A stretch of DNA of 63,863 nt from Catajapyx aquilonaris. Taxonomy: Eukaryota. A program made the position numbers and the translations under genes. How positions within the stretch are numbered: the first letter of the stretch is position 1; the number at the start of each line of letters is the position of its first letter. This document shows, one piece after another, positions 1-57,346 of the stretch. The stretch is taken from positions 1-63,863 of the forward strand of contig JYFJ02002046.1 of assembly GCA_000934665.2 (NCBI GenBank), written 5' to 3'. The notes beneath the pieces were generated by a model. That model was not told the origin of the DNA and made no database searches. It saw nothing but the letters and a program-made list of their open reading frames with translations.

Positions 1-83
1 GCCGAAGGCGCGCCAATTGGGGCGCAGCCCCAAGGGGGGGTGTGGGGGGGCGGAGCCCCCCCGCCTCGCAAAGCGAGTGTAGT
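1..83. mobile_element. Probable 3' end of a Helitron-like or other non-autonomous repeat, truncated at the window edge
   Basis: GC-rich palindromes (GGGGCGCAGCCCC, GGGGGCGGAGCCCCC, CTCGCAAAGCGAG) ending in GTAG-T before AT-rich DNA; resembles a rolling-circle element terminus. Confidence 0.35.
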
Positions 84-179
84 ATAATATGCTCCCTGGT
101 ACAGTACCGGTAAAGACTCTATTCGGTGGTTACGTGATCTGCAGTAAAATATTGTTATTTTCATGTTTGCCGTACAGAA

Positions 180-1217
180 ATGAGAACCATGGAGACGTGT
201 CCATTATTGTTGTCTAAAAAGATGGGATTAAAATTTTGTAAGTCAAAGTCTCATGCGCATGAAGAGGACTGCATGACACCTGCACCTTCAGTTGTCAGAT
301 CGGGTAATGACAAAGTGCAAGTAGGAGTGAAGGCACCTGTTTTCAGCTGTACAGCAGTTGTTGACCGTGGGAAACAACAACAATTGTTCGACCTCCAAGA
401 TTTGACAGGAAAGATATTGGTGTTGATATTCTACCCAGGAAACTTGTGAGTACAATATTATTCGTGTTTTGTGTAATACTGTACTAAATATAGGCCTATA
501 TTTTTTGCCAGTAAAAGGATAAGTCCACGTGAGTTGTCAGACTTTTCGAACCAACTGGAGGAGTTTCACGAGTTGTCCTGCGAGGTTGTCGCGATGTCAA
601 CTGATAGCCACGTGTCTCATCAGTACTACTTGATTCTTCCTCCGAGAAGTGGAGGGTTCGGACCTGTCAGAATACCCATACTGTCCGATAAGTCAGGTCA
701 GGTGAGTAGGGCTTACGGAGTGTACGATCATGAGACAGGATCGTCTAGAAGGAGCGTGTTTGTCATCGACGAAGAAGGAACAGTCAGACACATCGCCATA
801 CACGACACTGAGACACCAGTCGACACAGCAGAAACACTTCGTCTGGTACGAGCCATCAGACACCGCCAGATAGTCAACGAAGGTCTGTGTTGTTTACACA
901 CGAAAAATCACTGAAGAGTGACCCTATTCGCTTAAAATATCTATACAGGATGTCCTGAAGGTTGGAAACCAACTCCGGCTGAACTGAACGCCATGATTTC
1001 AGCTTGTGACTCCCAAGGAACTTCGAAGGATTCAAAAACAGATTCTGTGCTAGACGTGACTGTCAAGATGCTGAAGAGGGTACGACAATCCATGGACAGC
1101 AGACAGAGGATCGTCAGAAGAGATTCGAGTAACATGTACAAACTGAAGAAAGAGACGCATGGTCATGTACAGCCCATCCTAAGAACACGAGGGTCCATGC
1201 CATTTGACAAACAGTAA
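180..1217 (+). CDS. 2-Cys peroxiredoxin-like protein with the peroxidatic Cys replaced by Ser (pseudo-enzyme)
   Basis: Exons 180-445, 512-882, 949-1217 with GT-AG introns. The product has APVFSCTAVV, LVLIFYPGNF-KRISPRE, STDSHVSH, GGFGPVRIPILSDK, RAYGVY, RSVFVID, ETLRLVRA and NEGCPEGWKP, all collinear with the AhpC/Prx1 family. Confidence 0.85.
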
Positions 1218-1369
1218 AATTGGCTCTTCAATAATTAAAAATGTGTATATACCTCATCGTTGGCGTTCCCCACACTTCAAAATGGCCGCCAGCCTTGGCA
1301 ACGGCCCCAAACAGAGAGACGCGGAAATCGAATGTTTGCGCCTCTTATGCTCCCTGGCCGTGATATCAG

Positions 1370-1371
<2 letters not shown>

Positions 1372-1430
<59 letters not shown>
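1372..1430. repeat. (CT)n microsatellite
   Basis: Perfect CT dinucleotide run upstream of the SNX gene. Confidence 0.95.
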
Positions 1431-1431
<1 letters not shown>

Positions 1432-1628
1432 AAAAGGGTCAAAAATAGCGGATGTGCGTCACTGCTATATTTTGAAGTAGCTGCGATCCCCAGCCGCTAT
1501 GCTTATTGTTCGGCTGTCCTTTTTCCAAGATGGTGGCGCCCATGACATGGTTTTGAGATGATTCAAGATGAGATCATTTTTTTAAAAGGAAAGATTGACT
1601 GATTAGACCCGGGTCAAAGGTCGAAGGG

Positions 1629-2719
1629 ATGTTCAGGGTGTGTGTGCCGCAGTACAAGCAGGTGCTGGACGGAGGAGGAGGAGGGGAGGCCACCACCACC
1701 AATATAAAAGAAGGAAGGCCTTACTACGTGTACGTGATCGAAGTCAGGCAACAGCAGACCGGGAAGTGCCATCGTCTGGAGAAGAGATACTCTGCGTTCC
1801 ACACGCTGCACAAACAGGTTGGGGTCATATGGTTGGGAGGGGGCATGTCAAAGGTCACTCCATGTCCGGTACTAGTTGCTTCCCTATACGGATTAATCAA
1901 TTAAGTTTGGGCGGTAACTAATTAGTTGTCGTGACTACAGCCGTATCATTGATTCCTCATGACGACCACATGTTCCGTGTGGATATTGAAATGCAAACAC
2001 CTGCCGCTCCCTTCTTATCTAGTGCCACATGCGGTTGGAAAGTGTGCCGCTTCCTACCTGGCGCAATATGCATAATAATGGGGAGCAAGTGTACGTACAG
2101 TAAGAGATACGTACGCTGTAAGGAAGTGAGTTGGCATGGTCGTAGCAAATCTGGTCTTATTCGTTTCATGTCTTTGCAGCTGAGGAAGTCGTACCAGACG
2201 CCGGAGTTTCCGCCGAAGCGAGTGTACAACCTGAGTCCGCGTGTACTGGAGCAACGGAGAGTTGGACTCGAGTCGTACCTGCAGGCGATGCTGCGTTGCG
2301 TACCGGCTCCAGGAGAACTGCTGGCGTTCGTCGGGATCACTCAGGCGGAAGGAAGCTTCGAGTCGGTACCATTCGCTGCAAATTGCGCTTTATGCAACGT
2401 ACCCTGAGCATCAAACAAATTAACGTAATTTATATCCATTGACATGATTGTCAACAGTTTAACCGTAGCAACCTGCGGAACAGGTTCAGATGCTGTTGGA
2501 AGCTCAGATTAGCGACATAACGAGCTTTGTGTAATTTGTTGGCTTAACGAGTTCTTTTCGTTTAGTTCGCTGGAAGCTCTGGAGGAGGATATCGGAACGT
2601 CGCATCAACCGGTCGCCGTCTTTCCTTTGGATCCGTTCCTTGAGGTTGAAACAGGCTCTAAAACGGACATTGTAACGAAGGGCGTACTGCAAGCTTTGTA
2701 CGACACGCCTCGTTCGTAA
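1629..2719 (+). CDS. SNX24: Sorting nexin 22/24 (PX-only)
   Basis: Exons 1629-1817, 2180-2361, 2566-2719. PX motifs YYVYVIEV, EKRYSAFHTLHKQL and FPPKRV...LEQRRVGLESYLQ; SNX22/24-type tail HQPVAVFPLDPF...DIVTKGVLQALY. Probably co-orthologous to SNX22 and SNX24. Confidence 0.85.
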
Positions 2720-2803
2720 CAACCGGTGAGTTTTTTTTGTACATCTCCGTGTTTTATACAACTAGAAATGTTCTGCATTTCAGATTTTCCCTCCAGCATC
2801 GAA

Positions 2804-4267
2804 ATGGACACCTTGAAGCGATCGCAAGTTACTGCGTTTGGCCTCGTCTGGCTCTCATATGCAGCTAGTTACCTCCTACGAAAGCCCCTAGGCATCGTCA
2901 AAATGGATCTGTCCGCCTCAAAATTTGCGCTTGGAATGCTGGACGTCGCTTTACTGCTGCCGTACAGCGTGGTTCAAATACTTGCCGGTTCACTAATAGA
3001 CAAAGCCGGATCACGGCGAACACTGTCCATCTGCTTATTCGCTGCCGGTGCTGCGATGCTTCCGTTTGGTTACTCCCAAGATGTTCTGTTCATATGTGTT
3101 TTGCTGGTCGTCAGCGGTGCGATGCAAGGTCCGTGCTGGCCTGCTTCTTGCAAGGCTCTATCCGAGTGGTACCCCGATGGAGTTATAAACTCTGTAGTTG
3201 GCGTACTAAGCACCGCAACATACTGCGGTGCAGTCGGTGGAACCGCATTGGCCGTACATATGCAAGCGCAGTACGGACTACAATCTGTGTACTTGCCCGC
3301 ATCAATTATGGCCGTGTTGTTGTCAATTGTGGTGTTTGCGGCGCTGAAAAGTCCGGCTGACGTCGGAGTGTCTGTGCCTGGGAAGAACGAGAAAACGGTC
3401 GGTCCGGAGCATCCAAGTATGTAACATTTGGACAATGGACATGCAAATTTTTAATATTATTTTTCCTTCAATTAACGCTTAATTCGGACAGCATATAATG
3501 ACTTATACGTAACTGAAATTGTCATTGAATACTCAACGATTAATTTGATTAATTGCAGAGTTGACATTTTGGGAGCTGTGGCGGATTCCAATCGTGCCCG
3601 AAATATCCGGATCCGTCGTTTGCCTGAAGGTCGTGAGGTACGCTATGTACATGTGGCTTCCGATGTACTTCTCACGTCAGCTTGGATACTCCAAGGTGCT
3701 ATCGGGATTGCTGTCGACCGCTTTCGACATCGGCGGCGCCATCGGAAGTCCGGCTCTTGGGTTCATACTCGATCGGTACTTCCAGGTAATATTGTACGTC
3801 AAATTACATTGCTGTGTAGCTAATATAATTATTTGCAGGGCTCGACGCTTCGTGGATTGTTCTTCTCCGTTGCTGTCTCTGCAGTGTCGATGGCCGCCCT
3901 TATTACCACCGCCACATGGGGAGCTACATACAATGCGGTATCCCTATTCCTATGCGGCGCAGCAAACGGCGGTGCGGATTCGCTTCTGGCCGGATCCGTT
4001 TCGACTGCGATCGGCGAGGAAAACGGACGCGGCGCTGGAGCCGCAGTGACGGGCCTGGTTAATGGCCTTGGAACTCTCGGAGCCGTTTTGGAAGGACCGT
4101 TGCTCGGTTTGATGTTGAGCGGCGGAATGTCCTGGGACTTCATAATTGTGGTGCTGGTCGGAGTTAGCGGATTTGCGGCGTTGCTCGTTTGGAGAGCCTG
4201 GCGGATTCAGAGAAATGACGAGGCCATCGGGAGGTTCCACATGCTCCATTCGTCTGGACCAGTCTGA
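2804..4267 (+). CDS. MFS transporter, organophosphate:Pi antiporter (SLC37/GlpT/UhpT-like) family
   Basis: Exons 2804-3416, 3559-3785, 3839-4267. Many hydrophobic helices; motifs SYAASYLLRKPLG, QGPCWPASCKALSEWYP, VRYAMYMWLPMY, FDIGGAIG and VTGLVNGLGTLG. Confidence 0.85.
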
Positions 4268-4744
4268 TCTGGTGACAAATGTTAATTTGATAGCATGTGT
4301 GCGAAACAATGTTATTAATTTGGCGGCAAAATTTGTGCAAAATGATGTTGTGATAAGTTGCGGTTAATAATCATGTTGAAAAGTGACTTTGGTTGAAACA
4401 TGCCTGAAATGTCGTTAAGAAAATATTTCCCAGTGACTGATTTGCCTGCTTCGTTTGAATGGAAAGTGTCCCGACTATTTTGTAAGTGAAAAACGTGTCC
4501 GACTATTTGTAAGTTAAAACTATTCATTCAATTGCGGCAAATGAAGTTGTTACGGATCGTATTGCAATTTTCTTGTAAAAATGTTTTCAGCGATTTTGTA
4601 CCGATGAAGTTTCAGAATATTACGAGTAGCGGACGTTTGCTAAATTAAGGTCCAAGCGAATTATTATTACGTTGTCGTTTGTACTTGTACATGTTATGAT
4701 ATATTAAATATGACTTGTGTACATATCGGCTTTTTTGATGTGTT

Positions 4745-4930
4745 GAATTTCAGGAAATGTCGTCAAAAGTGCGAAGCAATCAACATTAAATTTCAGGAAA
4801 GTTAAATTAAAATAAATAGGAAATGAAGTCAAAAGTGTGAAGCCAGCAATCAACATTAAATTTCAGGAAATTAAAATCAAAATAAATAGGAAATGTCATC
4901 AAAAGTGTGAAGCAATCAACATTAAATTTG
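4745..4930. repeat. About three degenerate direct repeats of ~62 bp
   Basis: AAAAGTG(C/T)GAAGC...CAATCAACATTAAATTT recurs three times. Confidence 0.7.
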
Positions 4931-5419
4931 GTCAATGTCACTTAATTAATTTATTCAGGATAAAGACAGGCCTACACTTAACTTCCATCATTTAAATATT
5001 TAAATAACCCGCCAATTTCGGACAACGGCCGCTGATTGGCCAGCTGGTGGATCACAATTCGAATTCTTAAATCATACTCAATAATCTGTATTCCGGCCCT
5101 ATGATTAAGTATAAAGTGTATTACTATTTCTGAAAATATCAATAGCTTTATAATTTAATCTCGTTCGATTCCGCCTGGGTTTCATTTGGCAACCTTGCAA
5201 ATCCAAGATGGCGGCCCGCACTTGATGTTAATTTTTATCGGGGGAAAATTCTGGAAAAAGAAAAAAGAATATCGTGAGAACCGCCGGCTTGTTTCATATT
5301 CGCTATTTTACAAGGTCATCCGTCGAGTAATTGGGACGCACCATAATTACACATTAATTGGGCTTCAAGTTTAAGAAATGTCTGAAAGCAGGACAAGTTG
5401 TATTGCGAAGAGTAGGGCT

Positions 5420-5815
5420 TGAACTTAAACTATGCTTAAACTGTCGTTAAACTAGGCTTAAGCTGTCGTTAAACTGTTTTTAAGTGATGCTTAAACTGCA
5501 GTTAAATTATGCTTAAACAGTGGGTAAATTATGCTTAAGCTGTACTTAAATTGTGCTTAAATAGAGGGTAAACTACACTTAATCTACAGTTAAATTGTGC
5601 TTAATCTATAGTTAAATTGTGCTTAATCTATAGTTAAATTATGCTTAAACTGCACCTAACCTATGCTGAAACTGCACCTAACCTATGCTGAAACTGCACC
5701 TAACCTATGCTGAAACTGCACCTAACCTATGCTGAAACTGTGCTTAAATTATGCCTAAACAGTACACTTAAACTGTACTTAACCAATGCGTAAACTAGGC
5801 TTAAACTGAACTTCA
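5420..5815. repeat. Degenerate ~21-22 bp tandem array upstream of the PARP16 CDS (likely in a 5'UTR intron)
   Basis: Repeated TTAAAC/TTAAATT units, including four copies of CTGCACCTAACCTATGCTGAAA. Confidence 0.75.
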
Positions 5816-5850
5816 ACTATGAGCATACTTTTTATGTTTTCAGCTACGTG

Positions 5851-7323
5851 ATGGCTACCAACCCGGAGAACTCTCTGTCCGAAGCTGAAGGGGGTGTGTT
5901 TGCAAAGGCGAACAACGACAGCCTGAACTTGCTGTGTGCAAACCCAGGAGCGGAAGAGGAGCTTCGGGTCAAGCAGGTCAGAGACGCCTTGGAGCGTGAC
6001 CTGCTGGCTGCGGACCTGCGCTGGAGTCTGTTCGTGGCCGCCTCCAACAGCTACAGACACGACACTGTTCTCAGGCCGTTTCCGCCCCAGTTTGTCTGGA
6101 ACGGAAACCGAGATATAGATCAGCTCGTACGTCACATTCTGTTCATTTCACAGCATAGAGATGCATTTACATGCGAGCGATTCGGTCAGCGATGTTGCAG
6201 CAATGATATGGCTCAGAGATGAGGCCAATTGTTTGGAGCGAGAATATACTGTTACTTTCACGAAACTTCGCTGATCAAATCGCTCACATGTAAACGGGTC
6301 TTTCTTTTGAATCATGAATTTTGAATGCATGCTTATCGTATGGTAATTTTTACAGAGGTCAGGAGTAGCCGGAATCCCGCCGTTCACCCAAATATTGGCT
6401 GAGTTACGGAGCGGACGACGGCTCAGCTTGGATCCGTCATCGCTTCAGCTTCTATGGTGGGTCCTATGCGGCACAGGCGGTCCGCAGCTATCGACCGTAT
6501 TGCAATCGGAGCGAGACCAAATCATCAGGAAGGTGGGATGGTCAGATGAGCCACCGCCGCCTACTCTCATACTAAGCCTGCAATGGAGCGAATCCAGCGA
6601 GAGACGGTGAGCGATTTGGTCGTTTAATTACCGAGACTTAACCGGATTTGTTACAGATGGGACATGTGGCGTCAACAAGGCAAATCCGGCACATTCTACG
6701 CATTCCATGGAAGCCGCATGGAGAACTTCCACTCTATAGTTCACCACGGGCTTCAGCAGCACATGAACCGCAATTCGCTGTTCGGCCAAGGGGTGTACCT
6801 ATCGAGCGAAATGAGCGTGTGTATGCCTTACAGTCCGACAGGACGAGGATGGGAGAAGAGTTTAGCGCAAGGCGGGATCAACTGCATCGCACTATGCGAG
6901 CTGGTTGATCATCCAGATGTACGATGCAGGACTAAAGGTAATTCATTCGTAAAACGGACTAAATTTGTGAATGACTGATCATTTTATTCCGGCCCAGATG
7001 ATGACTTGGCTCGTTCGCGAACATCGGACAGCCTAGCCGGCAAGGTTCCCGAGAAGTACTTTGTGGTGGTGAACAGTGAGTTGGTTCGTGTCCGTCACCT
7101 CCTTTTCTACTCTGCCCGGGGACAAGGACCTGGTGCTTGGAAGAACCCAATCCTTGACCCTGTCCCGTCCCTTCCCATGGCGTCGATGCAGCGTCCGTCA
7201 TTCCTTCGCAGACACAGGTTCGCTCTGTTGATGGTAGCCTACGCTGTAGTGCTTCTGTCTGTCGGAGCTGGTGACTCGAGAGCTATCAGAAGATGGGCCA
7301 GATATCTCGGGATTGTACGGTGA
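5851..7323 (+). CDS. PARP16: Mono-ADP-ribosyltransferase PARP16 (ER tail-anchored)
   Basis: Exons 5851-6126, 6356-6606, 6657-6937, 6998-7323. Motifs AADLRWSLFVAA..SYRHDTVLRPFP, AFHGSRMENFHSIVHHGL, SLFGQGVYLS, CIALCELVDHPDV and PEKYFVVVNSELVRVRHLLFY, plus a C-terminal TM helix. Confidence 0.92.
6159..6301. mobile_element. MITE, family A (TIR GCGTTTACATGTGAGCGATTTGATCAGCGA-like)
   Basis: About 30 bp imperfect terminal inverted repeats inside a PARP16 intron; the same TIR occurs at 18908 and 22039. Confidence 0.7.
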
Positions 7324-9708
7324 ATCGACAACAAATTCACGCCAAAGCTGGTCCGAAACGTTTTACATAAATATAGGAGTACAGTTTGTAAAAGTCATGT
7401 GCTAGTATTTTTGTACGCAATAAGTGCAAGTCATAATATGAACATTGCGACTCAAGTGTGGAGAAAACGGCAGATTGTTTGGCATGACTTATTTTCTAAT
7501 CTTATGTTCCTTAATGCGCTTGCATTTTCTCGATTGCTAGTAATCAACATTAATTCAGTATTAGCGAAATGCAAGTTGCGGTTAGCATAATATTTTGTCG
7601 ATACTTAACACATTGGAAGGAACAAACATGTTTCGTATTATCACGAGCAATTTTTCTCGAACGTGTATGAAACTGTTGGTGTTGCGAGCTTGTCGTCAAT
7701 TATTTTATTCGTAAAACGTACGCATAATTGGTCCAACTTGATACTCGACCTCTATACAAAATACACACTGTACTTTTTTTTTTAAAAGGCCTGTACTTTT
7801 TTTCTAGTCACTGTCTACTTGCATTGAAGTCAAACTTGATTGTTTCACCCGCTGTACCTGGACCAATCTGTTGCATAATATTCTGTAAGTTTATGCTAGT
7901 CCCTTGACTTGTTAAGATGACGGCTGAGTTTGGTTGATCTGGTCGGACTTTATGTAGCACATTATTTTGTGTAGTGTTTTATAAAACAAATATATGATGG
8001 GTATATATGCAACAAAAATTTTGTACATATTAATACGGTCTTGGATAAAATTGTTGCAATAATATTTGTTGGTTTCACTGGAGGACCGGATAAAATGTGT
8101 CAAAAAAAAACGATTTGATATGTGGTCGAAACAATAAGAAATGTTGCGATGTGAATTGGTAGCAATAACTACGAGTTGTAGTCAAAATTAATTGTCAGCA
8201 TTTTTCATAAAGTTCACTCGTGGACATGTGTGTGAATGAGCTTGCACCAGTAAGACTTGCCTGGTGCATGTTCCATGTGTACTTGTGTCGTTTTGCACAA
8301 AAGCAGTGCCAAAAGAAAAACAAATAAGGTGATTGTATATCATGACGAACTATATGTCTACAAAATAAAAATGTGGGAGGAAAACATTATGTGACTTTTT
8401 GGACATTATAATTATTTTTCAAGCTGGACAAAGTCTTCCCTGTGTTGCCATCAAGATGTGGTTGTGGCAATGTTGTACTTGTTGCAACCGTAGTCACAAG
8501 ACGTCACTAGCCATTAGTGTGCAAAATACATCTTGAGTGCACCATACCTCGCATTTGTTTTCACAAAAAAAAAATTGTGCACTACACCCTGATGTTTTGT
8601 ACGTATTACGTACCTATTACACTTACTATATGCGCCTGTATCATCATTAGATTATATTGCTGTTCAAACAGTTATGGCACGTTGCATTGATCACCATTGA
8701 ACCTGCGAAGATGAAATTATCATAGTTTATTTTCCAAATATTTTGTAATTTAATTATTTTTATATATTTACTGTTTTTTAATTTAATTTTAATTTTAATT
8801 TTATACTTTAATCTTATTATATTATTTGTTACTATTGAAAATTTATTAGGATTATATTGTTATCCACCTTTTTATCATGATATTTTTATTATTTTGGATT
8901 TTATTATGATTATACTATATAAGTTATGATTCAAAATTTATTATGATTATAGGTTATGATTCAAAATTTATTGTGATTATATTATTCATTTTGAACCATT
9001 ATGATTATTTTGTGTCATATTATTATAATAATTTAATATTTTATCGCGATTATATTATTATTTAATAGTTTGTTGCGATTATATTAATTTGTTATTATTC
9101 GCACAATTTATTACGATTATATTTAATTACTCTTTAATGTTTTTAATCAATTTGATTTGAATTTTTCTGAATTGATTATTATCCGTAGTTATATAAATTA
9201 TAAAATATAATATAAAAATGTAATGTGTATATATTTATGTGGTGAAATTCATTCAATTCAAATTTCGACTATTTAGTTTAGAATTGATTTTTTAAAATTA
9301 TTATAGAACATATCAGTGTGATATTATTATTATTATTTTTGATTTAAAATATTAAAATCACGCATCTAATAATAATATTTTAGCCTCGATTAGTTGATGG
9401 GGGCGGAGGGGGGGGGGGGGTGGTTAAAATATTCCCAGCATATTAATTAAAGCAACGAATAACCCATCAGGCTTTCAATTAAAAGTACTTGATCCACACC
9501 TGTCAATGAATACGTCAATCCCACCCCGGCCGATTCCCTTATTTAACACGTACGACACATGCGCGTGGAAACACTTTCCAACGCAAATGATCCCACGTGA
9601 CCAAAGACCTATATCGATCTCTCTCTCTCTAGCTCCAGCAGAAAAGGTGGGCCTAAATAGACCCTATCAATAACATCCGCCGAGGAGGGAACAGGTTGCC
9701 AAATAAAA

Positions 9709-12212
9709 ATGGAGCCGCACATTTGGCTCCTGATTTCGGCCATTTTTTGGAAAAACGGATTCGGACTGGAGACCGAAAGCTTCCAGTTCCTCATGCCAAA
9801 TGTCAGACCATCCACGGTGAGTTATTAGTTATTATAACTAATTGTTATCACGTATTTTTAATGTACAATATGGGCCGCAAATCGGGAGACATGGACAGGT
9901 GTAATATGACACCTAGGTGTAATATGACACCTGTCCATGTCTCCCGCTCCAGCTTTATGGCAGGTGTATGGAGCCTTTTAAAAATATATATATATGTATA
10001 ATTTATTGATAATATCGAGGCTGGTTTATATTGCAATAAATATACAATATTTATTGCCGAGATTTTCGCGAAACTGACCGATTTCAATGGTTAATAAAGC
10101 TGCAAAACAGACATATCTGCTCCACTGCAATTAATCAGCAGTTTTGCGCATTTCGAAAATATTAATGTGCACTTAACGACAAAAAAAGCAACAAAAATCA
10201 TTCTTAATAATTAATTTTGACTCCGCAATTATTTAAATAATATAAATGGAAATTAAATCAAGATATAAATGAGTATTAGTTTTATATCTATCATTATTAA
10301 TTTGTTCCCTACCGTTTGGAGGCAAATTTGCAGTTTGGGTGGATAAATAAATCAACATTAAATACCGGGCAATATAAAAAATAATGTAATACCTACAATA
10401 TAATGCAAATAATATTACGTAAGAATAATTCAATATAATACTATGTAAAAATAATTCAATATAATACTATGTAAAAATAATTCAATATAATACTATGTAA
10501 AAATAATTCAATAATTATAATATAATACAACCAATACAATTATATTATAAATTATATAATATAAATAATATAAATAATACTATAGATGAAAAGCGCATTT
10601 TTCAAACCTTCCACTGCGTAGTACTATGCCCGACAAAAATATTTGGGTCGATTTTGAGCCAAATAAATATTCAGTAATTTTTGTACTTGTCCTGCCAACC
10701 AATTCACTGTGAGTTATCACCTTCTTGGATATCCCAACTTAGGGAAAATCCAATAAGGAAGCGGCACGACCCGTGTGAAAATGAGGCTAAAGCGGAGCAC
10801 GTACAAATCCAATTGTTTACTTCTTCCGTATTGGACACGCATCTGTTCTCATTTCCTCAAACGGCTCATTACTATTCTGGAAGCATACGCTGCAAACGAC
10901 GGACACAAATTATTGAAGGTGACATGTGATGCTTGTTCTTTTCCAGCCGGAGACATACTGGTGCACGCCTATCCGCATAGACTCGGATAATGACTACTAC
11001 ATAGGTGAGCAAAATAGTTAAAAATCAATTAAGACTAATTGGCCACTAATGAGCATAATTACAGAGAGTACTTAGAAAATATTTTAACATTATAAGCATC
11101 ACTTTTCATGGTGAAAATACTGGTTATGGAAATACACTGATACTTAAAAAAAATAATTACATCCAATTGCACGCTAATTAGTTGCCTGTAAAATTACAGT
11201 GGGATTCGAACCGAACGCAACAATGCACACGGCTCATCACATGTTAATCTACGGCTGCACAACGCCTGGAACAGAAGAGGCAGTATGGTACGACACTAAT
11301 TACAGTTCGCACGCATTGCAATTAACACAATTAATTATACAGGGATTGCGGAGAAATGGCTGTGGCCCAAGAGGCAGGTCTGATCAAAGCAAGTCCATGC
11401 GCTAAAGGATCGCAGGTATGCAATTATTAATACTCTCGTACGTACATTTGTCTCATCGCAAGTTGCTTTCAGATAATATACGCTTGGGCTCGTGACGCTC
11501 CTGCACTGAAGCTGCCTCCTGGAGTCGGGTTCAAAGTTGGTCGCAACACCGCCATCCGCTACCTGGTCCTCCAAGTACACTACGCGCATGTAGACCACTT
11601 TCAGGATGGAAGCACAGACAACTCCGGTGTATCGCTGCAGTACACCGAAATCCCGCAGCCGAAACTAGCCGGAGTCGTGCTTCTCGGAACAGGCGGATAC
11701 ATCCCACCGAAGAGCGTCGAGTACATGGAGGCTGCTTGTCCGGTGAAGGAAACCAAGACGCTTCATCCCATAGCGTTCCGGACACACACGCACCAGCTCG
11801 GAAGGGTCGTCGCCGGATTCCGTGTCAGGCGCGATCCAGACGGAGATGACCAGTGGGCACTTCTGGGGAAGCGGGATCCCATGCTGCCGCAAATGTTCTA
11901 CCCAGTGGCCGACAACGGGACTCTGGTCGAGGAAGGAGACGTGTTGGCGGCCAGATGCACCATGGTCAGCAATCGCAGGCGGATCACGGCCATTGGGTAC
12001 GTATCGAGCTTGTAACGCACCATTGCATACAACTTCATCTCGTTTCCAGCTCCACAAACGACGACGAGATGTGCAACTTCTATCTGATGTACTACGTCGA
12101 AGGATCCGAACCGCTTGATATGAAGTACTGCTTTTCGATGGGGCCGCCACTATTCAGCTGGAAGAAATACCCTCTGAACAACATCCCGAACGAGGAAGCC
12201 TCGTCTTTTTGA
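9709..12212 (+). CDS. Phm: Peptidylglycine alpha-hydroxylating monooxygenase (stand-alone PHM)
   Basis: Exons 9709-9816, 10947-11004, 11200-11287, 11343-11415, 11473-11996, 12050-12212. Signal peptide, then LMPNVRP, YWCT, AHHMLIYGC, IYAWARDAP, LVLQVHY, FRTHTHQLG, DPMLPQMFYP and DEMCNFYLMYY; the copper ligands are intact and there is no PAL domain. Confidence 0.93.
10423..10512. repeat. Three ~27 bp tandem repeats in PHM intron 1
   Basis: AATAATTCAATATAATACTATGTAAA repeated three times. Confidence 0.8.
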
Positions 12213-13803: not shown

Positions 13804-16424
<2,621 letters not shown>

Positions 16425-24526: not shown

Positions 24527-24679
24527 AAACCAGAGGGTTCCCAAATGGGGAAAGGCAGTCCTAAAACGAAGTTAGTTCGGAGAAGCAGACGATAACAAGT
24601 CTTACGAGTAAGTGAGGATTGTTGGTGTTGAATTGTCATTGTCGAATTGAACTAATTGAATATGTTTTTCCGTGCAGAA

Positions 24680-25863
24680 ATGAGCATGATCCCAATGCGT
24701 TTCCGTGACTGGTGGGAGGATTTTGATCGTCCGATGAAGATATGCGACCAGCATTTCGGACTCGGTTTGCGTTCGGACGATTTGATCCATCCGATGTCGA
24801 TGTCCCACTCTCCGTCCTACTACAGGCCATGGAGGAGCTTAACCAGACCCACGATCACCAGCGGAACCTCCACTGTTCAGGCGGACAAGGAAAAGTTCCA
24901 GGTACCCATTTTTTCCTACATTAGCTCCAAACATTGTGTGACATATCGGCAGTGCGACTGTGCCATTGCGAAATATTTAAAACTGGAATCCAGGATCCGC
25001 CCCAATCCTTTCAGGTGATGCTGGACGTCCAGCAGTTCAATCCGGATGAGATCACGGTTAAGACGGTGGACAACTACGTGGTGATTGAGGGCAAGCATGA
25101 GGAGAAGCCGGACGAGCATGGGTTCATCACAAGGCATTTCGTCAGGAGGTACATGCTTCCCTCGGATGTCGTCCCGGAGACTGTCACCTCTTCGCTTTCC
25201 TCCGACGGCGTGCTTACAATCACCGGACCAAAGAAGGTTTGTTCTCATGTTTTTAATCAGTCGAATATGCTCGTCCGCAGTTTTATTACGTAAAAATGTC
25301 TGCATCATCGCCCCTCGGTTAGCCATAGTTGACGGATACACGATTGGCAATTACATGGGATTTTTGTGCTGAATTTACGAGTCAGATGTGCTTGGTAAAC
25401 ACTGCGTCAACAAGTAAAAAAAGAATTAGTCTGTGAATTACAGACCGTAATATCTCATGATGGGATGCAGGAAAGATTTTACGTTGATGAAAAACGTCTC
25501 TTCATGTATTGCTTACAACATGTGAAGTAATGAGCAAAAAGATGTTTTTCTCTTGGGTAATGCGATAATGAGAAGTAATTCATTAGAATAATATTTAAAA
25601 GGTGTACACACATGAAGAAGGTTGCAGTAAATTGTGAAGCAAGAGTTGCTTCTGTTACGTAACTTGTTAATTATTGTTGGGGTACAATTGTGCACATGTT
25701 TTTTGGCAGCGATTTATTACTATGCGACTAATTACAGCCGGTGGAGCCTCCGAAGCCCAACGAGCGGGTGGTGCCAATCCAGCACACTGGCCTTCCCGCC
25801 GTGAATGCCTCTGCCGCCAAGAGCCCCATCGGCGAGAAGATCGTTGAGGTCAAGCAGGAATAA
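24680..25863 (+). CDS. l(2)efl: Small heat-shock protein (alpha-crystallin domain), l(2)efl-like
   Basis: Exons 24680-24901, 25015-25236, 25738-25863. Motifs FRDWWEDFDRP..DQHFGLGL, YYRPWR, FQVMLDVQQFNPDEITVK, EGKHEEKPDEHGFITRHFVRRY, SSLSSDGVLTI and the C-terminal ERVVPIQHTG. Confidence 0.92.
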
Positions 25864-40800: not shown

Positions 40801-43119
40801 AGCAGATTGAACTAATTTTCCTGGATGGTTCCAGGACCTCCGTCGCCACCAGTGATTCCGGATCCTCCAGCCCCGCTCTCACCACGCTCAACTCGCAGAT
40901 CTCCTCGCTCTCCGACTCGATCCAAGTCCCGTCCTGCCAAGTTCACAATAGGTGGAGATGATGGCTCGGATGTGGAGCTTCCACAGGGCGAGGAGCCCAG
41001 GACTCCAGCGACCGGCTCTCCGTCGTCCACCCCTCCACAGTCGGACGTAGAGCCTGATTCGGACCCGAGGCCGTTGGAGGAGTGTCTCCAAATTTACAAG
41101 TCGGAAGACGGAGCGTCGTCATTGTCGGACACGGAGGTTATCAAGTTGGTGAGCAACAAGCATGTGCCGGCGTACCAGCTGGAGAAGGCGGTGTGCGATC
41201 CGGAGCGAGGTGTGCGGATAAGGAGGAAGATTCTAGGGCAGACGGGCCAGTTCGAGGAGGTGATGGACGATCTTCCGTACCAGAACTACGATTACAGCAA
41301 GGTTTGTACAGGTTTGTTGAAGGTTGAGCGGGTTTGAAACGGCTTCTTTTGCAGGTGCTTGGTGCGTGCTGCGAGAATGTGATAGGCTACATGCCCATAC
41401 CCGTGGGTGTGGCCGGTCCGCTTTTGCTGGACGGACAGGTCTATTACGTTCCGATGGCCACGACCGAGGGTTGCCTAGTGGCCTCGACCAACAGGGGATG
41501 CCGAGCGCTGATGGCCAAGGGGGTTCAGTCCCGAGTAATCCGAGACGGCATGACGAGAGGTCCGTTGGTCCGCTTCCCATCGATGGTGCAAGCCAGGTTG
41601 GTTCATCTCCTAACGAGAAGTTGGACATGTTGTGAGACACCTGCGTAATTTTCCAGTGAGGCTATGAAGTGGATGGAGGATCCGACCAACTTCGCAGCCT
41701 TGAAGGAAGCTTTCGACCAGACCAGCCGTTTCGCAAGGCTTAAGAGTGTGCGGCCCACCGTTGTCGGTCACGACCTGCTGATCCGGTTTACGGCTCAAAC
41801 TGGCGACGCAATGGGGATGAACATGCTGTCGAAGGGTACGGAGAAGGCGCTGCACTGCCTCCAGCAGCAATTTCAGGAGATGGACATAATCAGTCTCAGC
41901 GGGAACTACTGTACGGATAAGAAGCCGGCAGCTATCAACTGGTGAGTTGTCGCATTGTGTACGTTTCGGTTTGCAATTTAACATGTTGTTTCTGTAGGAT
42001 CGAAGGTCGTGGGAAGTCCGTAGTGTGCGAGGCGGTCGTGCCCGGACCGGTGATCGAGTCCATAATGAAGACTTCGGTTGAAGCCTTGGTTTCGCTCAAC
42101 TTCGGTAAGAACATGGTCGGATCCGCGATGGCCGGAAGCATCGGCGGATTCAACGCCCATGCGGCCAATCTGGTCACGGCGGTTTTCCTGGCGACTGGTC
42201 AGGACCCGGCCCAAAACGTGGGGAGCTCCAACTGCATCACGCTGATGGAAGCCACGGGCAACGACAACAGGGATCTCAAGATATCCTGCACCATGCCCAG
42301 CATCGAGGTTGGGACGGTCGGAGGGGGAACGATCCTCAACGCGCAAGCTGCCTGCCTGGACATGCTCGGAGTCAAAGGTATCCGCTATTTTAAAAAAGCG
42401 CCCAGGTCATACTATCCGATGGTAGTTAACTTAAACCGATTTGTCTGCCCGTTTCAGGAGCCCATCAGGAATGTCCGGGACAAAACGCATGCAGCTTGGC
42501 TCGGATAATCTGCGCCACCGTGCTGGCCGGAGAGCTCTCGCTAATGTCGGCTCTTGCGGCCGGCCACCTTGTCAAAAGCCACTTGAAGCACAACAGGTAA
42601 TTTAAATGGCAGCATCAGCCAACATCACATTGTAAATAATTAGCAAGTGACGGTTGCAAGTACTTCAGGTTGTGGTTCTGACTAATCATTGTTTGAACAT
42701 TTTCCGCAGGTGGCCTGTGTCAAAAAAACTGCCATAATTTTTTTTAAAAAAAGTCCATATGTGGCTCTAACCAACCGAATGATTTAAAAAGTAGGTGGTG
42801 GTGGATTAACATGTGTCGATCGCTTACTAACGTTCGATTAATGCATGACTCAATTGGTGCGCATCTATCGCACTTTTTAATCGTCCTTACTCTTTGCATG
42901 TGTAATTTTTCGTCTTTCATCTTAAATTTTGCATGAAGTTGTTGCGTAATATTTTTATACTGTGCTTTTTGATTTTTGTTTGTGGGTGCGGCATGTTCTG
43001 ATGTTTCTCCAACCGCTTCCCGTAGGTCCACGCAAAACATGGAGGCCCAGCCGTTGCAACCTCGCGAGAGCAAAGTCTCGCTCCTGCTCAGCACAGCTCC
43101 GGAGTGCAGGCCAACATGA
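37847..43119 (+). CDS. HMGCR: 3-hydroxy-3-methylglutaryl-CoA reductase (class I, with sterol-sensing domain)
   Basis: Exons 37847-38053, 38304-38415, 38486-38573, 38640-38830, 38945-39051, 39887-40032, 40171-40305, 40566-40744, 40835-41301, 41355-41596, 41657-41941, 41998-42377, 42458-42596, 43026-43119. Motifs [67 protein letters not shown] and [12 protein letters not shown]. Confidence 0.97.
39728..39830. mobile_element. Small hairpin or MITE in an HMGCR intron
   Basis: GTACTCAGTAAAACAAATC / GATTTGTTTTACTGAGTAC is a perfect inverted repeat, with an outer GTTATGTTCGGTTGCG / CGCAACCGAAATAAC pair. Confidence 0.6.
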
Positions 43120-47427: not shown

Positions 47428-50400
47428 CATTAATATTATTATTATTAATGTTATTATTATTATTATTGACAATAATTTGCAATGTTGTTATGTTATTTAT
47501 TGTTTGTATTATTTTATTTTACTTTACTTTCATTTTTTATTACCATACCTTTATTATTTATTATTCATATTATTTATGATTTATTATTCTTACTATTTAT
47601 TACATGCATTATTTATTACTTGTAGTTATTATTATTTATGTGCATTATTATTTATGTGCATTATTATTATTATTATTTATGTGCATTATTATTATTATTA
47701 TTATTTATGTGCATTATTATTATTATTTATGTGCATTATTATTATTATTATTTATGTGCATTATTATTATTATCAATTAATTAATTGTAATGATTGTGTT
47801 TTATTAGAATTTTTATATCTATTATTTATGCCATATTTTTATTTTATACTATTTATATTACATAATAATGATTAATGTGAATTTTAATATTCGTCATAAT
47901 ATTTATATTCGTTTCGATCAGAGCGTTACTGGAGAAGCAAGCTCCGATCCCGTGGCCGATAACGACCCCCGTTAAAAAGACGGGTCAGATGCTGATAGAG
48001 CAGGAGTTTTCGGAGGATTCGAGTGACGAAGATTTCGATCCGAAGAAGGAGAAGGACCATGAGGTGAACCGCAGAGTCGTTTAGCCTTTGTCGTCTTGGT
48101 GCTAATGACGGGTTGTTTTCAGAGCGATGATGATGAACATTCGCATCCAAGTGAGATTGATTCGCCTTCGAAGCCTAGTCCTTGTTTATCGACTGGTGCT
48201 CAAGACGAAGCGACTCCGCCGCATCTTCTGCCAGAATCGAGCGTATTCAAAGTCCCGCCTGTTCCGTCATCGGTACGTCAACTCGACTTCGATGCAGTTC
48301 CGTCAACATCCACCGAGTCTGGAATCGGCCAACGAACTCGCTCCAAGCACCCTCTGACGGACAAGACGATGGAGACAATTGAGATGGATTTTGTTCCCCC
48401 GGACATCACTCCTGACATGTACGACTTCAGGTGCGACAACCCTGATTACCTCACGTTTTTAAAGGAGTGCTACCTTCCGAATGGCGACGGTGTGGGGGAC
48501 GTGGACGATGTGGAAGCGGATCCTGAGTATAACTTTTTAGGTGAGGAAGAAGAGATGGACGAGGAGGAGCTGAGGATGGACCGGGCCGTTAAGGTAACGA
48601 AGAAGGAACTTAACGAGCTAATGGCGGAGCTTCTGGAGTACGGGAATGTGTCGAGCGATGAAGAGGAATCGGGCGAGAAGGAAAAGGAGAAGAAAAAGGC
48701 GACGGAACATTTCGAGCAAGTGTGGGTGCCGCAAGTGGAAGAATCTGCGGAGGAGCAGGAAGAGTTCTCATCATCAATCGAGATCCAATCGTCTGACAGC
48801 TCAATAGCCGAGGAGGTTCGGGTTATCTCGCAACACTGTCGAACGACTTCTAAATGCGATTTTTTTTCCAGATTCCCGGCGTACCTGTGACCCCAATAAT
48901 AACTCGGATTGGTTGGGAGTTTACCGGCGACGAAAAGGCGCAACTGGCCCATCAAATGCGAATGCACGTTCAGCTCTTAACGCAGACGCATCTGTTGAGC
49001 CACAAACGGGAAAGATTGGATCATCACTCCAGAAAATGCAGCAAGATGCTCGTACGTTTTTACTTCCATGTCTGCAGCTCACCAAAACATTCACTGTGAA
49101 CATTTTTTCTGTGCTTTCACAGGAGGAGTTGAGCCAATTGAGCCGTGGAAAGTCCAACTCCGCATTTTCGACATACAACCTGCCGCACGCACTCGAAGCG
49201 ATCAAGAGTTGGGAGAATTACTGCGACAAGGAGAACCCTTGGAATGAACAAGGCGCTGAGTAAGCGAATTTTCTTTCGACGGTAGTGTCGATATTTCATC
49301 ATAATTCTTTCCAGCCAGGACCAGCGGGTGGCTTTTCCGCTTCCCCTCGTTAAGCTGGTGGGCGACAATAAGGCATTCGTTTACCCCGAATTGCTGCCGG
49401 TTCGTCCTTTCGGCGAAGAGCAACGTTGGAAGTCGTGGTTCAGCAAGTCTGAGTACCAGCTAATCGCAATGGGACTGGAGCAGTTCTGTCCCGGTCACAG
49501 CTTGAGAAGGGCGATGGAACTCATTCTGGATCATATGGTTCGAGGCCGCAGTTGGACGAGTTTGAAGTCCCGGATCGTCCAGCTTAAGCGTGTGAACGGC
49601 AATCCGATAAAGGTGAGGTCATTGGTTTACTCGTCAGATTCTGTGCTAACCTCGTGATGATTTGCAGCATTATTTTGATCACAAGAGAGCTCCGGCTGTT
49701 GAGCGACTTGTGCCGCATTTCGACCCACTGAATGTCGTCGTTCCTAGTCAGCGGCTCGTTTCTGAGCTGCCGACACCATGGAAGCAGTACTTTGCATGGA
49801 AGCGGTCTCGCGTCTGCCTACCGAAGGTAACCCATTTTTTAAGCATCCAATATGTGACTCACATCATGCACTTTTGCAGCCCAAAGTTGCGTCAACAATG
49901 GTTGAAGTCGCGAAGAAGGTGCCCATCAGTCCACTGTCGAATATTACCAACAATTTGTCAGCCCTACTGAAGCCGCATTGTCCGCAATATTACCGCCAGA
50001 GCCTGACAGTCATGCCCGTTAACGTGACGACTTCATCGGCGCAGCCCATAATAATTTCGTTGCCGCCGTCCGTTCCTGTCGTGGTGACTCGCAGGTCGGA
50101 CGAGCCGCCGGCTGCGAAATCCAGCAGCGTTCCTGTCGCAACAGTAGCACCGTCCGTGGTACCCGTCGTCACGACTTCTGTGGCGCAACCTGAAGCGGAA
50201 GTGTCGCAAGCTGCCAAATCGCCAAAGTTGACGCAAGAGACGTTAACAACGGATGTGTACCAGAGTCCGATCGTTTCGTCTCGTCACGCCCTGTCGATGC
50301 CGATGATTGAGTCTGCAGAAAAGGATTCGCCCCGCAGTCAGGCCTCGCCTGAGTCTGCTCTGAAGCGGGGGCCGATCGCAACATTCGTAACGAAAGAGCT

Positions 50401-52303
50401 GGTTAGCAAGCGCCGCTCATCGGCCGCCAGTCACTCGCCGGTGAAGCAGGCTGCAAATATCGTTAGGAAGTACAGCAGCCACATGCGGAAGACCGGCGGA
50501 AACCTCAGGTGGCGACGCACTTTCGCATCTCCGCCATCGCCGCCAGCTCCGAGCCCGCCTGCGACCCAACCTGTGAACCTGGAGCCGCAGATGCCCGATG
50601 CGGAAGATGGCATGGAGTCGGAGCAGGACAACGAGAAGGACCTGGAGGCGCTGATGCGGGCAAGTTCGACGATCAGAGGTCGAGGCGGTGGACACACCGG
50701 AAGCAGAGGACGCCTGCAGAAGAGGCGGAAGGACCTGGACGACACACTGGCTCTGTTGCAGCCCATGACTGCGGAAGAAAAGGAAGCCAAAGATAATGGT
50801 ACGTACAACATCGCTCGTTACGTCCGGATATGTAAACCGCATATTGTTGCAGCGTACGTGGTGGCGTACGTACAGAAGGTGCAGAAGACGGTGGGTCGGA
50901 AGGAGCCTGCGACATACCAGGAGTTCATCTCCCTGCTGAGCCTCTACCAGTCCAGGCAGATCGGTGTCAAGTCCTTCTACTCGCACATCACGCAAGTACT
51001 GGGATCGTACCCAGACTTAGCCGAGGAGGTCATCGCATTCCTGACCCCGGGCGAGGCGTTCGAATGCGGGAAGTACAGGTGAGTACGCACCATGCGGTTA
51101 CATGCGCGTTGAATACAAATTGCGGTTCTAGGGAGCACCTGGCGTTCGTGCGGATGCGGGAGTTCATCCACAAGCTGGAGAGCTACTTCCGGAAGAGCCC
51201 GCAACACGTGCAGAAGGTGCTGCGGGTGCTGGGGCAACTGCAGGAGGCGTCCGGTGTCACGTCGCAGGTTATCAAGCAGAAAGTGGTGCCGCTGCTGAGG
51301 GGAAACGTGGTCCTGATCGACGCCTTCCTGCAGCTAATTCCTGGGGAGGTTCCACCGGAAAGGTGAGCCCGTTAAATGCGTACGTAGGCGATGTTTTAAC
51401 CTGAATTGTCCACAGCCAAATGACTGACTTTGAGGAACTTGTGGACTACCCGGACTCGGATCGATCGTCTGGACAGAGCAGCCCGCAGGAGACCCTTCAG
51501 CTTCCGCCGGATGACGACCCGTACGGCGGAAAGCGCTGTCCGTGCGACTGCCACGCGGCATCCGATCCGAAGTTCCACAACCGCGAGCGCCACTGCGTAC
51601 CTTGCGGCACCAAGTTCCTGGAAGGAAAAGTGTTTGTGCAGACCGGACGTGTGTTGAGACCGGCCCGAATAGTCCGGTGGTGTCCGACTGGGAAAGGAGA
51701 GGACACAGCACCTCCGCCGGAAGGGGATTCGAGTGAGGCTCATTTTGGCGGCGCAACTAATGTTAAATCGGACGAGGATGTGCCGTCGGCCGGAGTTTTT
51801 AGCTGCGTGTCCGGCGAAGGTGCCGGTCGTGGCGTACATTCGGAGCCGTCTGTTGTGGACAGTCCTGAAGCTGATTTCGAGCAACTGCGGTGTGATGATG
51901 CGGACGTTAAGAGCAGCCCGACCGATCTGTTGGCTTCCCAAGAGGATACAAGCGACAGTATGGATGGCGACGACTGTGATTCGAAGGATGAGCCGCACAG
52001 TTGTTCGTCGGACGAGCCGTCCGCCAGTCCCCCTCCGGTTCAGGTGTGGACCAGGGAGGAGGACAAGGTGATCCTCCAGACATGCCAGAGGGAAAGAGGC
52101 AACTCGGACGCATTCCAGGCCATCTGCAGGCAGCTGGAGGGACGCACTATCGAACAGGTATGCCTATGCGACTGCGGCACTGCCCCGGTGCGACTCACCC
52201 CGCTGAATGTTTGCAGGTGCGGACCCGGTTCGAGCAGCTGATGGCCCTGCTGGTCCAGCAGGTGTCGTCCAGCCGAAGCGACGACTCCGCAACCGACTCT
52301 TAG
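46608..52303 (+). CDS. GON4L: GON-4-like protein (mute; PAH and Myb/SANT domains)
   Basis: Multi-exon gene, probable start ATGGAAGGAGAG|GT. Motifs LSAINVKNILR, EPKLTRAK, QRTRSKHPL...FVPPDITPDMYD, DPEYNFL, RMDRAVKVTKKELNELMAEL, QMRMHVQLLTQ, two PAH-like repeats, YGGKRCPCDCH..HCVPCGTKF and the SANT motif WTREEDKVILQTCQ. Confidence 0.9.
47368..47775. repeat. (ATT)n microsatellite and ATTATTATTTATGTGC repeats in a GON4L intron
   Basis: Long ATT run and derived units; this accounts for the spurious poly-Ile ORF. Confidence 0.9.
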
Positions 52304-56497: not shown

Positions 56498-57026
56498 TTA
56501 TTCGACCCATTTCTCCCATTGTACAGCTGATGATCGTAGGGGCGGCTTCTCGCTCGTGTAATACGGATCAACCAAGTAGATCTTCACCGCTTCGGTCCAC
56601 TCGGCCGGATAGTGCTCGTGAAAATGGTTCAGAATTTTGTCAATCTTCTCGTAGTGCTTCTGGTTGCATTCGTCGCAGCTTCGTCCCAACGTGATGAAAT
56701 AGTGTGAATGTTCTGTGAATTAAAAATTGTGAATAACATTTTGCTGTCGTTGCAGGATACCAGTTGCGCAAACACCATGGGAAATGATCTACGCTGATAG
56801 CAGACACGAGCTTTTACGCAATCCCAGGAAAATACATACCTTTAAGCCAAACACCAAGCGGATCGCAAGGCCCTCGGTTGATGATGCAGCGAATCTGATG
56901 CTCCACGGCTCTTCTGTCCTGCAAATACTCGTCTACGTCTATCTCATCCACATCGTCCAGACTCAAAATCGCACCAGACATAACCGGAGCACATAATGCA
57001 ATGAGTAAAATTATTGCGGCTTGCAT
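56498..57026 (-). CDS. Chemosensory protein (CSP/OS-D family), copy A
   Basis: Exons 57026-56840 and 56712-56498. Signal peptide, DEIDVDEYLQDRRAV, CIINRGPCDPLG (C-X6-C), phase-1 intron, CDEC (C-X2-C) and HYPAEW; TATA-like CATATAAA near 57063. Confidence 0.88.
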
Positions 57027-57346
57027 CTTGTGAAGTGACGAGTAAATGAGACGCTCGTTGTGTTTATATGGGGGTCAAACCATAACCTTGGTGGTCTAAA
57101 GTTGGTGAGAGTAAGTAGATAATAGCGACTTTTTAGCTAAATAATTGCGGCCTGAGTTTACACAAAAATGGATGAGGAACAAGGAACTGCCTTGATTTAT
57201 TTATACAGTTCAAAGAGTTTAGCCGCAATCCTGTAGAAAATGGTGTGAAAGTTAACAACTCCTTTTTTTAAGCAGCAGAATTTATTTTTAACATTGCTCT
57301 CGGTACATGAGGCGGTAAATACTTTTCTAATCAGGCCGTAATGTAT

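Follow-up and report, generated by a model that had tools for sequence, protein, structure and literature searches.

A likely dicistronic transcription unit with a spliced intron between a SNX22/24-like PX gene and an SLC37-like transporter gene in Catajapyx aquilonaris

In Catajapyx aquilonaris, a gene for a small PX-domain protein and a gene for a membrane transporter follow each other on the forward strand of contig JYFJ02002046.1 (assembly GCA_000934665.2; positions 1 to 63,863, all 63,863 nucleotides (nt) of which form the window analyzed here), and the short spacer between them is interrupted by an intron. The PX gene has three exons. Exon 1 (1593-1817) comprises a 5′ untranslated region (UTR) at 1593-1628, taken from the first contig record, which begins at 1593, and the SNX22/24-like coding sequence from the ATG at 1629; it ends on the donor aacag/GTTGGG. 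Exon 2 (2180-2361) encodes the PX domain, and exon 3 (2566-2725), delimited by the sequence, the contig joints and the open reading frame (ORF) model, holds the end of the coding sequence, the stop codon TAA (2717-2719) and the first 6 nt of the spacer. The intercistronic intron (2726-2783, 58 nt, GTGAGT...TTTCAG) comes next, followed by the second part of the spacer (2784-2803, 20 nt, from the sequence and the ORF model) and the transporter gene, which begins with the ATG at 2804-2806. Its three coding exons lie at 2804-3416, 3559-3785 and 3839-4657, all on the forward strand, the last containing the stop codon (4265-4267) and the 3′ UTR up to the contig limit. The resulting models are a PX protein of 174 amino acids (aa; 1629-1817, 2180-2361, 2566-2719) and a transporter of 422 aa (2804-3416, 3559-3785, 3839-4267).

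The identities of both proteins were assigned from domain and profile matches. Pfam detects PX in exon 2 of the upstream gene (E 1.1e-5) and no other family in the 174-aa protein. The best solved-structure matches of this exon are SNX24 (4az9, E 8.5e-9) and SNX22 (2ett, 1.8e-8), with the next at 3.5e-6, and a profile of the related PX ORFs described below has SNX22 (2.6e-25) and SNX24 (9.4e-25) at the top and its next match at 1.2e-13. Human SNX22 and SNX24 are similar in size, PX-only proteins of about 170-190 aa. The upstream protein is thus predicted to be a PX-only sorting nexin, closest to SNX22/24 among PX proteins. In the downstream gene, MFS_1 is found in all three exons (E 2.5e-22 in the first). 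A profile of the transporter relatives matches a rice protein (3e-57), SLC37A2 (1.5e-54), SLC37A4 (6e-39) and GlpT (1.7e-38), the last three being its top matches among named animal and bacterial chains, and the source names of these relatives include ‘SLC37A2-like’ and ‘glycerol-3-phosphate transporter’. The product is a predicted OPA/SLC37-type MFS transporter with SLC37 and GlpT as its closest relatives. An initial annotation of the window had named the two genes SNX24 and SLC37-like, and both names agree with the Pfam families and with the matches to SNX24 (4az9) and SLC37A2. Among seven aligned transporter homologues, most start within a few residues of the Met encoded at 2804; a long N-terminal extension is present in one, and another lacks an initial Met.

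The initial annotation had also described the spacer itself: the TAA, the donor G/GTGAGT beginning at 2726 after the G at 2725, the 58-nt segment with its terminal TTTCAG at 2783, and the ATG at 2804. Direct reading finds all of these exact, with intron borders aaccg/GTGAGTTT ... TGCATTTCAG/atttt, and the donor is the best consensus among the five donors of the unit. Once spliced, the spacer measures 26 nt and contains no ATG, and the PX and transporter frames differ by 2, so that stop readthrough gives no fusion protein, as had been foreseen. The transporter frame of the spliced RNA has a stop at 2659-2661 and no ATG upstream of 2804, which keeps the two ORFs separate and complete. Without splicing, the TAA and the transporter ATG share a frame, the 28 intervening codons are open, and the intron holds an ATG (2768) that would be in the transporter frame were the intron retained; removal of the intron abolishes this in-frame continuity. 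The absence of AATAAA between the genes, likewise noted at the outset, extends to ATTAAA: neither hexamer occurs between 2300 and 4703, the first ATTAAA lying at 4703 and the first AATAAA at 4811, so a PX message would have no canonical end before the transporter.

RNA evidence comes from the contigs of X1, the one public run found to contain this stretch, compared with positions 1-9000 of the window; these are assemblies, not reads. The kind of run is not on record, and it is treated as RNA-derived because its contigs are without introns. A single contig of 1564 nt (depth 8.48) covers 1593-1814, 2177-2361, 2566-2724 and 2783-3416. The joints within the PX gene (1814 to 2177 and 2361 to 2566) are both GT..AG, and the joint from 2724 to 2783 skips the 58 nt between the genes, again with GT..AG borders (cut +1), which corresponds to the junction 2725^2784. 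That junction had been proposed as a check, and its presence in RNA-derived contigs, at the assembly level, places the spacer-intron pattern beyond chance. Two further joints at the same depth of 8.48 (3416 to 3559 and 3782 to 3836, both GT..AG) extend the contig path into transporter exons 2 and 3, with all five introns out; exon 3 is further defined by the ORF model and by a contig over 4047-4657. At the assembly level the locus thus has two defining features of a gene pair with dicistronic mRNA in the FlyBase/Sequence Ontology sense, namely two complete, non-overlapping ORFs on the same strand and spliced RNA over both.

The depths of bins 2401-2700 (3.82) and 2701-3000 (6.84) are, by our arithmetic, what the 1564-nt contig alone gives, and hence no contig of run X1 is seen that runs over the unspliced spacer or ends there as a separate 3′ end. 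At its own 5′ end, position 1593, the contig bears no extra letters. On the other side the contigs reach 4657, short of a visible poly(A) site for the transporter. Positions 3976-4046 are uncovered, and the fourfold depth on 4047-4657 could be due to 3′ bias, an extra transcript or an assembly break. Contigs of this kind reveal presence, not absence; rare variants are dropped from them, and a contig over two genes shows no single transcript.

The arrangement is found well beyond this genome. Metagenome and metatranscriptome contigs were scanned with an alignment of the transporter first exon and seven homologues, yielding 20 loci. The initial annotation had suggested looking for the same arrangement in relatives, and a PX ORF or PX exons lie directly upstream of the transporter, on the same strand, in 10/20 loci (L002, L005, L006, L007, L014, L015, L017, L018, L019 and L020). 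Five intron-free contigs carry a long same-strand upstream ORF, and this ORF is PX in all five (148-187 aa, Pfam E 1e-10 to 1e-13). These related PX ORFs align over their whole length with the window PX protein and have in common with it the C-terminal motif DIVTKGVLQALY, encoded in exon 3 of the window gene. In the five intron-bearing loci (L007, L017, L018, L019 and L020) the PX exons were located upstream by tblastn and hidden Markov model searches. The remaining 10 loci show no PX in the 37 to 564 nt of upstream sequence that they contain, and in the cnidarian-clade loci none is seen within less than 260 nt.

The distances from the PX stop to the transporter ATG are 10, 11, 24, 29, 48, 62, 76, 106 and 412 nt, next to the 26 nt of the spliced window; those of 10-29 nt belong to L018, L019, L020 and L006. 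No intron was found in the spacer of the genomic relatives, which makes the intron of the window a lineage-specific feature of an older arrangement and not its origin. Nor was a conserved spacer element found; L018 and L019 differ at 4/11 spacer positions between nearly identical flanks. The 412-nt spacer (L005, 569-980; also L004, 1-234) is AT-rich, contains 14 ATGs and is unlike the short spacers of the other loci; sites resembling a donor and an acceptor lie close to its two ends, and it may represent an intercistronic intron that was retained.

In a quick maximum-likelihood transporter tree (IQ-TREE, 40 rows, SH-aLRT support only), L007 groups with Tigriopus (89) and L005 with Eurytemora (99); the same copepod clade (99) takes in L002, L014, L015 and L017-L020. 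L006 pairs with the barnacle Amphibalanus (100), and the neighbours of the window are a springtail protein and L010 (90). The linkage is therefore present in copepods, in a barnacle relative and in a springtail-like lineage. Counted as distinct sequence lineages, the PX-to-transporter order with tiny spacers is present in at least seven (copepod and barnacle clades), plus the window. That copepods and a barnacle relative have kept this order, with spacers of 10-106 nt, argues that the linkage is under selection and is not read-through noise. As judged from these sequences, the gene pair is probably an old two-protein message and not an accident.

In two of the copepod-clade loci the upstream end of the unit is marked by a spliced leader. 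The first 31 nt of L002 and L005 agree with the 3′ part of the 46-nt spliced leader of calanoid copepods (CopepodSL) published by Yang et al. (Table 1, PMC4664967), and these nucleotides stand ahead of the PX ORF. The L002 contig contains, in that order, the spliced leader, the PX ORF, the transporter ORF and a poly(A) tail, albeit as one contig of an assembly. The leader string of L002 was not found verbatim in the literature searched.

The contigs show the intron spliced out and the two ORFs joined, related loci keep the gene order, and the two proteins are never fused. These observations are probably best explained by a conserved dicistronic transcription unit that carries an ordinary spliceosomal intron of 58 nt in its inter-cistron spacer. 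Transcription would start near 1593, pass through the 174-aa PX nexin and, with no poly(A) signal in between, continue through the 422-aa transporter. Removal of five introns, that of the spacer included, would leave a processed RNA with two complete, non-overlapping ORFs, 26 nt apart and in different frames. One capped, polyadenylated molecule would then be the working mRNA for both proteins, with ribosomes terminating on the PX ORF and reinitiating at the AUG close by, whose context is good, or else entering internally. A single spliced mRNA with two cistrons was one of the options raised by the initial annotation, and it is the one that fits best with the contig over both ORFs, the PX-to-MFS order in 10/20 loci and the structure of L002.

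Several observations weigh against such a unit. The RNA evidence consists of assembled contigs only, in which two overlapping mRNAs could have been merged, and the RNA nature of run X1 is itself deduced from its intron-free contigs. The 3′ contig (4047-4657) has a depth of 35.1 against 8.48 for the dicistronic contig, a difference that could come from extra transporter-only transcripts. L010, the locus nearest to the window's clade beside the springtail sequence, has no PX in 564 nt upstream, a hint that some springtails may have lost the linkage, and none is found upstream in L011 (295 nt), L013 (254 nt), L003 (138 nt) or L001 (101 nt); L004 comes from the organism that also gave L005, and its sequence begins within the spacer. 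On the side of translation, the ORF1 AUG has a purine at -3 in 5/5 cases, ORF1 contains out-of-frame AUGs in four relatives (3, 2, 5 and 3), and reinitiation after about 170 codons is deemed inefficient in the absence of special elements (PMC10275272).

Foremost among the rival explanations, though in our view unlikely, are two overlapping monocistronic mRNAs. Transcription of the transporter would start inside PX exon 3, as in the third option of the initial annotation, or upstream of it, 2726-2783 would be a 5′ UTR intron, the PX message would end at a non-canonical poly(A) site, and the assembler would have merged the shared sequence. Contigs cannot show starts or ends, and the higher depth at the transporter 3′ end, 35.1 versus 8.48 upstream, is in line with this arrangement. 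So is the structure of the next gene downstream, which is PARP16/ARTD15-like (Pfam ARTD15_N and PARP): its non-coding first exon (5216-5273) is spliced 5273^5844 over a 5′ UTR intron of 570 nt, which indicates that 5′ UTR introns are normal in this genome. In the copepod clade, the 138-295 nt of 5′ sequence in L003, L004 and L011 contain no PX. Most dicistronic loci in FlyBase also make monocistronic forms, 45/159 being exclusively dicistronic (PMC4528330), and a separate transporter mRNA would solve the problem of how ORF2 is translated. However, no AATAAA or ATTAAA is available to the PX gene from exon 3 to 4703. The donor lies 6 nt past the stop and no unspliced contig is seen, which implies that PX RNAs reaching 2725 are spliced on into the transporter. 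The 10-29 nt spacers of L018, L019, L020 and L006 are too tight for a separate end and start unless one mRNA holds part of the other ORF, and L002 has its spliced leader before PX and its poly(A) after the transporter.

The second option of the initial annotation, an operon resolved by trans-splicing, is very improbable. In that case a spliced leader (SL) would be added to the acceptor at 2783, giving a monocistronic transporter mRNA, and the cis-spliced form would be a side product. Spliced-leader trans-splicing does occur in some crustaceans, the copepods (PMC4664967), and TTTCAG is a good acceptor. Moreover, two loci of the cnidarian, Hydra-side clade (L013, 1-35, and L016, 1-25) have a common 5′ head of about 25 nt with one base different, which probably represents a spliced leader joined straight to the transporter mRNA. 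At the window, however, the acceptor is joined in cis to 2725, at a consensus donor, and the RNA contigs show that very junction. A non-genomic leader at 2784 had been suggested as a sign of trans-splicing, and no leader-like end is present there among the loose ends listed. The contig starting at 1593 carries no added letters either, and the contig 5′ ends of the two genes looked at, the PX gene (1593) and the gene after the unit (5216-5273), have no common leader. The copepod leader has 0 matches in the window with up to 3 mismatches, and an Rfam scan of the whole window at gathering scores returned 0 matches, SL RNA families included. In the copepods themselves the leader precedes PX, and it starts none of the three copepod-clade contigs that begin nearer the transporter (L003, L004 and L011).

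A similarly small chance is given to non-functional read-through, that is, a conjoined-gene chimera of close neighbours whose splicing uses a cryptic donor past the stop. Compact genomes commonly yield read-through chimeras, and the depth at this locus is low (8.48). Against this stand the order and tiny spacers kept in at least seven lineages of the copepod and barnacle clades and in the window, the lack of a separate PX 3′ end signal, and a donor with the best consensus of the unit's five. In human conjoined genes, too, the intergenic stretch is spliced out as an intron, linking the last exon of the upstream gene to the downstream gene. They usually splice from the upstream coding region into the downstream second exon, give fusion proteins and are mostly not conserved; here, in contrast, the donor lies after the stop and the acceptor before the start, neither ORF is disrupted, and the arrangement is conserved. 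A fusion of the PX protein with the transporter, produced through stop readthrough or intron retention, is barely credible: the unspliced TAA and ATG share one frame with 28 open codons between them, and L006 and L015 are likewise in frame across one stop, but the only RNA form seen is spliced with the frame shifted by 2, 2/10 loci in frame is not above the chance expectation of one in three, the PX Pfam domain occurs in 0/15 (up to 2000 aa) and 0/120 (up to 779 aa) transporter relatives (0/135 in total), and most homologue N-termini start a few residues from Met 2804.

If the dicistronic unit is accepted, how do ribosomes reach the second ORF? The ORF2 AUG has a purine at -3 in 10/10 loci and the spacer is free of AUGs in 9/10; a short, mostly ATG-free spacer followed by this start context fits reinitiation after termination or internal entry. 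Translation of the transporter by one of these two routes is our tentative preference, held at somewhat less than even confidence. Supply of the transporter from an unseen monocistronic mRNA is a serious alternative, at only slightly lower confidence. Leaky scanning is improbable as a source and was dropped: the AUG depletion of ORF1 is absent in the four relatives, which argues against it, and the ORF1 AUG has its purine at -3 in all five cases. For the ORF1 sequences of the four relatives combined, 13 out-of-frame AUGs were observed against 12.4 expected from codon shuffles (P 0.65). In the window, just 2 ATGs occur over 587 nt, each of them in the PX frame, and thus 0 out-of-frame AUGs in ORF1; dinucleotide shuffling gives a mean of 5.4 (P 0.048) and synonymous resampling P 0.17, and for the out-of-frame count P is 0.04-0.17 depending on the null. 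A restart of the type directed by a viral ribosome-binding site upstream of the point of termination (TURBS) was rejected as well, with spacers of at most 20 nt in only 2/10 loci and the core motif in 0/10 ORF1 ends, the latter a weak test that used a five-base rRNA-complementary motif. Other routes to translation of the transporter make up the remainder.

A bolder version of the dicistronic unit can be formulated, which we regard as doubtful when all its parts are taken jointly. The pair would be an obligate dicistronic mRNA that predates the split of the barnacle, copepod and springtail-like lineages. Its second ORF would be reached by reinitiation or internal entry after about 170 codons, with neither AUG depletion nor a viral-type tether, by a process that tolerates spacers from 10 to about 100 nt. 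The PX protein would serve as the sorting adaptor of the transporter, and the intron gained in the window would set an exon-junction complex about 45 nt before the restart AUG, where it may aid initiation.

The sequence upstream of the unit contains a candidate core-promoter element. The YY1-like motif AAGATGGTGGC (1527-1537, forward strand) is an exact match to AARATGGYGGC and lies 56 nt before the contig start at 1593. With up to 1 mismatch, AARATGGYGGC has 14 matches in the window against 5.0 expected, a number reached in 0/100 shuffles. Its two exact copies, at 1527-1537 and 5205-5215, stand just before the points where RNA coverage begins in the PX unit and in the PARP16-like gene, and we infer that the copy at 1527 may have promoter function. 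Farther upstream, a (CT)n microsatellite of about 27 units occupies intergenic positions 1376-1430. An element containing TATGCTCCCTGG is common to 61-99 and 1261-1357, between the peroxiredoxin-like and PX genes. Contigs of run X1 match this region up to 1329-1350 and then diverge into other sequences with the TATGCTCCCTGG motif, and the bin 1201-1500 reaches a depth of 41; the element looks like a transcribed dispersed repeat.

Elsewhere in the window, matches were found to an AhpC/TSA peroxiredoxin (477-911), a copper type II monooxygenase (11431-12209), CSN2 (13973-15053, reverse strand, with an exon that best matches arthropods), HSP20/alpha-crystallin (24656-25290) and HMG-CoA reductase (41328-42505). 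A PAH-repeat ORF (49766-51079) and two ORFs of the OS-D/A10 chemosensory-protein family (56817-57637, reverse strand) lie farther along, and exons with PH and START domains are also present. The chemosensory ORFs and the CSN2 exon give the window an arthropod character.

The nearest parallels to this unit are the dicistronic genes of Drosophila, such as stoned A/B and Adh-Adhr, of which FlyBase annotates 159 pairs in D. melanogaster (PMC4528330; PMC2776167). They too are arthropod genes with two unrelated, complete ORFs on one processed mRNA; they use no trans-splicing, their downstream ORF needs reinitiation or internal initiation, and most of the FlyBase pairs do not fit the scanning mechanism (PMC4528330). 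Unlike in these pairs, the spacer described here holds a spliced intron, and the linkage extends beyond one genus to the copepod and barnacle clades. The PX and transporter pair was not found in FlyBase File S1, and the searched supplement files of PMC4528330 contain 0 sorting-nexin or PX entries. The only MFS entry in the searched files is CG15717-MFS10 (File S1, rows 330-331), which has 677 nt from stop to start and monocistronic alternatives. MFS10 probably belongs to the sialin-like group and not to SLC37. Nothing in the literature searched links SNX24 or SNX22 to a dicistronic arrangement.

Other systems resemble the unit in part. The bicistronic loci of green algae are conserved, apparently exclusively bicistronic nuclear mRNAs that encode two unrelated proteins at a short inter-ORF distance (PMC11892635). 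Their hallmarks, a weak ORF1 Kozak context and AUG depletion before ORF2, are not conserved here, where only the window is without out-of-frame AUGs. Operons resolved by spliced leaders in nematodes, tunicates and others have one promoter, genes on the same strand, a very short gap and a good 3′ splice site before the downstream cistron (PMC2776167; PMC1488885). In the unit described here the acceptor is instead joined in cis to a donor lying 58 nt upstream, both cistrons stay on the mature RNA, and in the copepod relatives the leader caps the upstream cistron only. The TURBS-dependent restart of caliciviruses and influenza B likewise follows a long ORF that ends near the restart AUG, as in the 5/10 loci, window included, with spacers of 10-29 nt; viral start and stop lie within 20 nt (PMC10275272), whereas half of the spacers here measure 48-412 nt.

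Dicistronic mRNAs are thus known in arthropods, and what is new is this gene pair, its unusually deep conservation and a natural series of spacer lengths. Few arthropod dicistronic mRNAs are known to be conserved beyond a genus, and how a second long ORF is reached by ribosomes is for the most part unsolved; according to a recent review, the rules on distance that govern reinitiation in cellular mRNAs once a long ORF has been translated are unknown (PMC10275272). The spacer series from 10 to 106 nt, one member of it with a spliced intron, spread over distant crustacean-type lineages, offers a direct comparative and reporter test. For annotation, the arrangement is a warning that gene callers will report a single one of these ORFs or take the PX ORF for a 5′ UTR. 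For the proteins themselves, the pairing predicts a functional link between an uncharacterized SNX22/24-like adaptor and an uncharacterized SLC37-like transporter.

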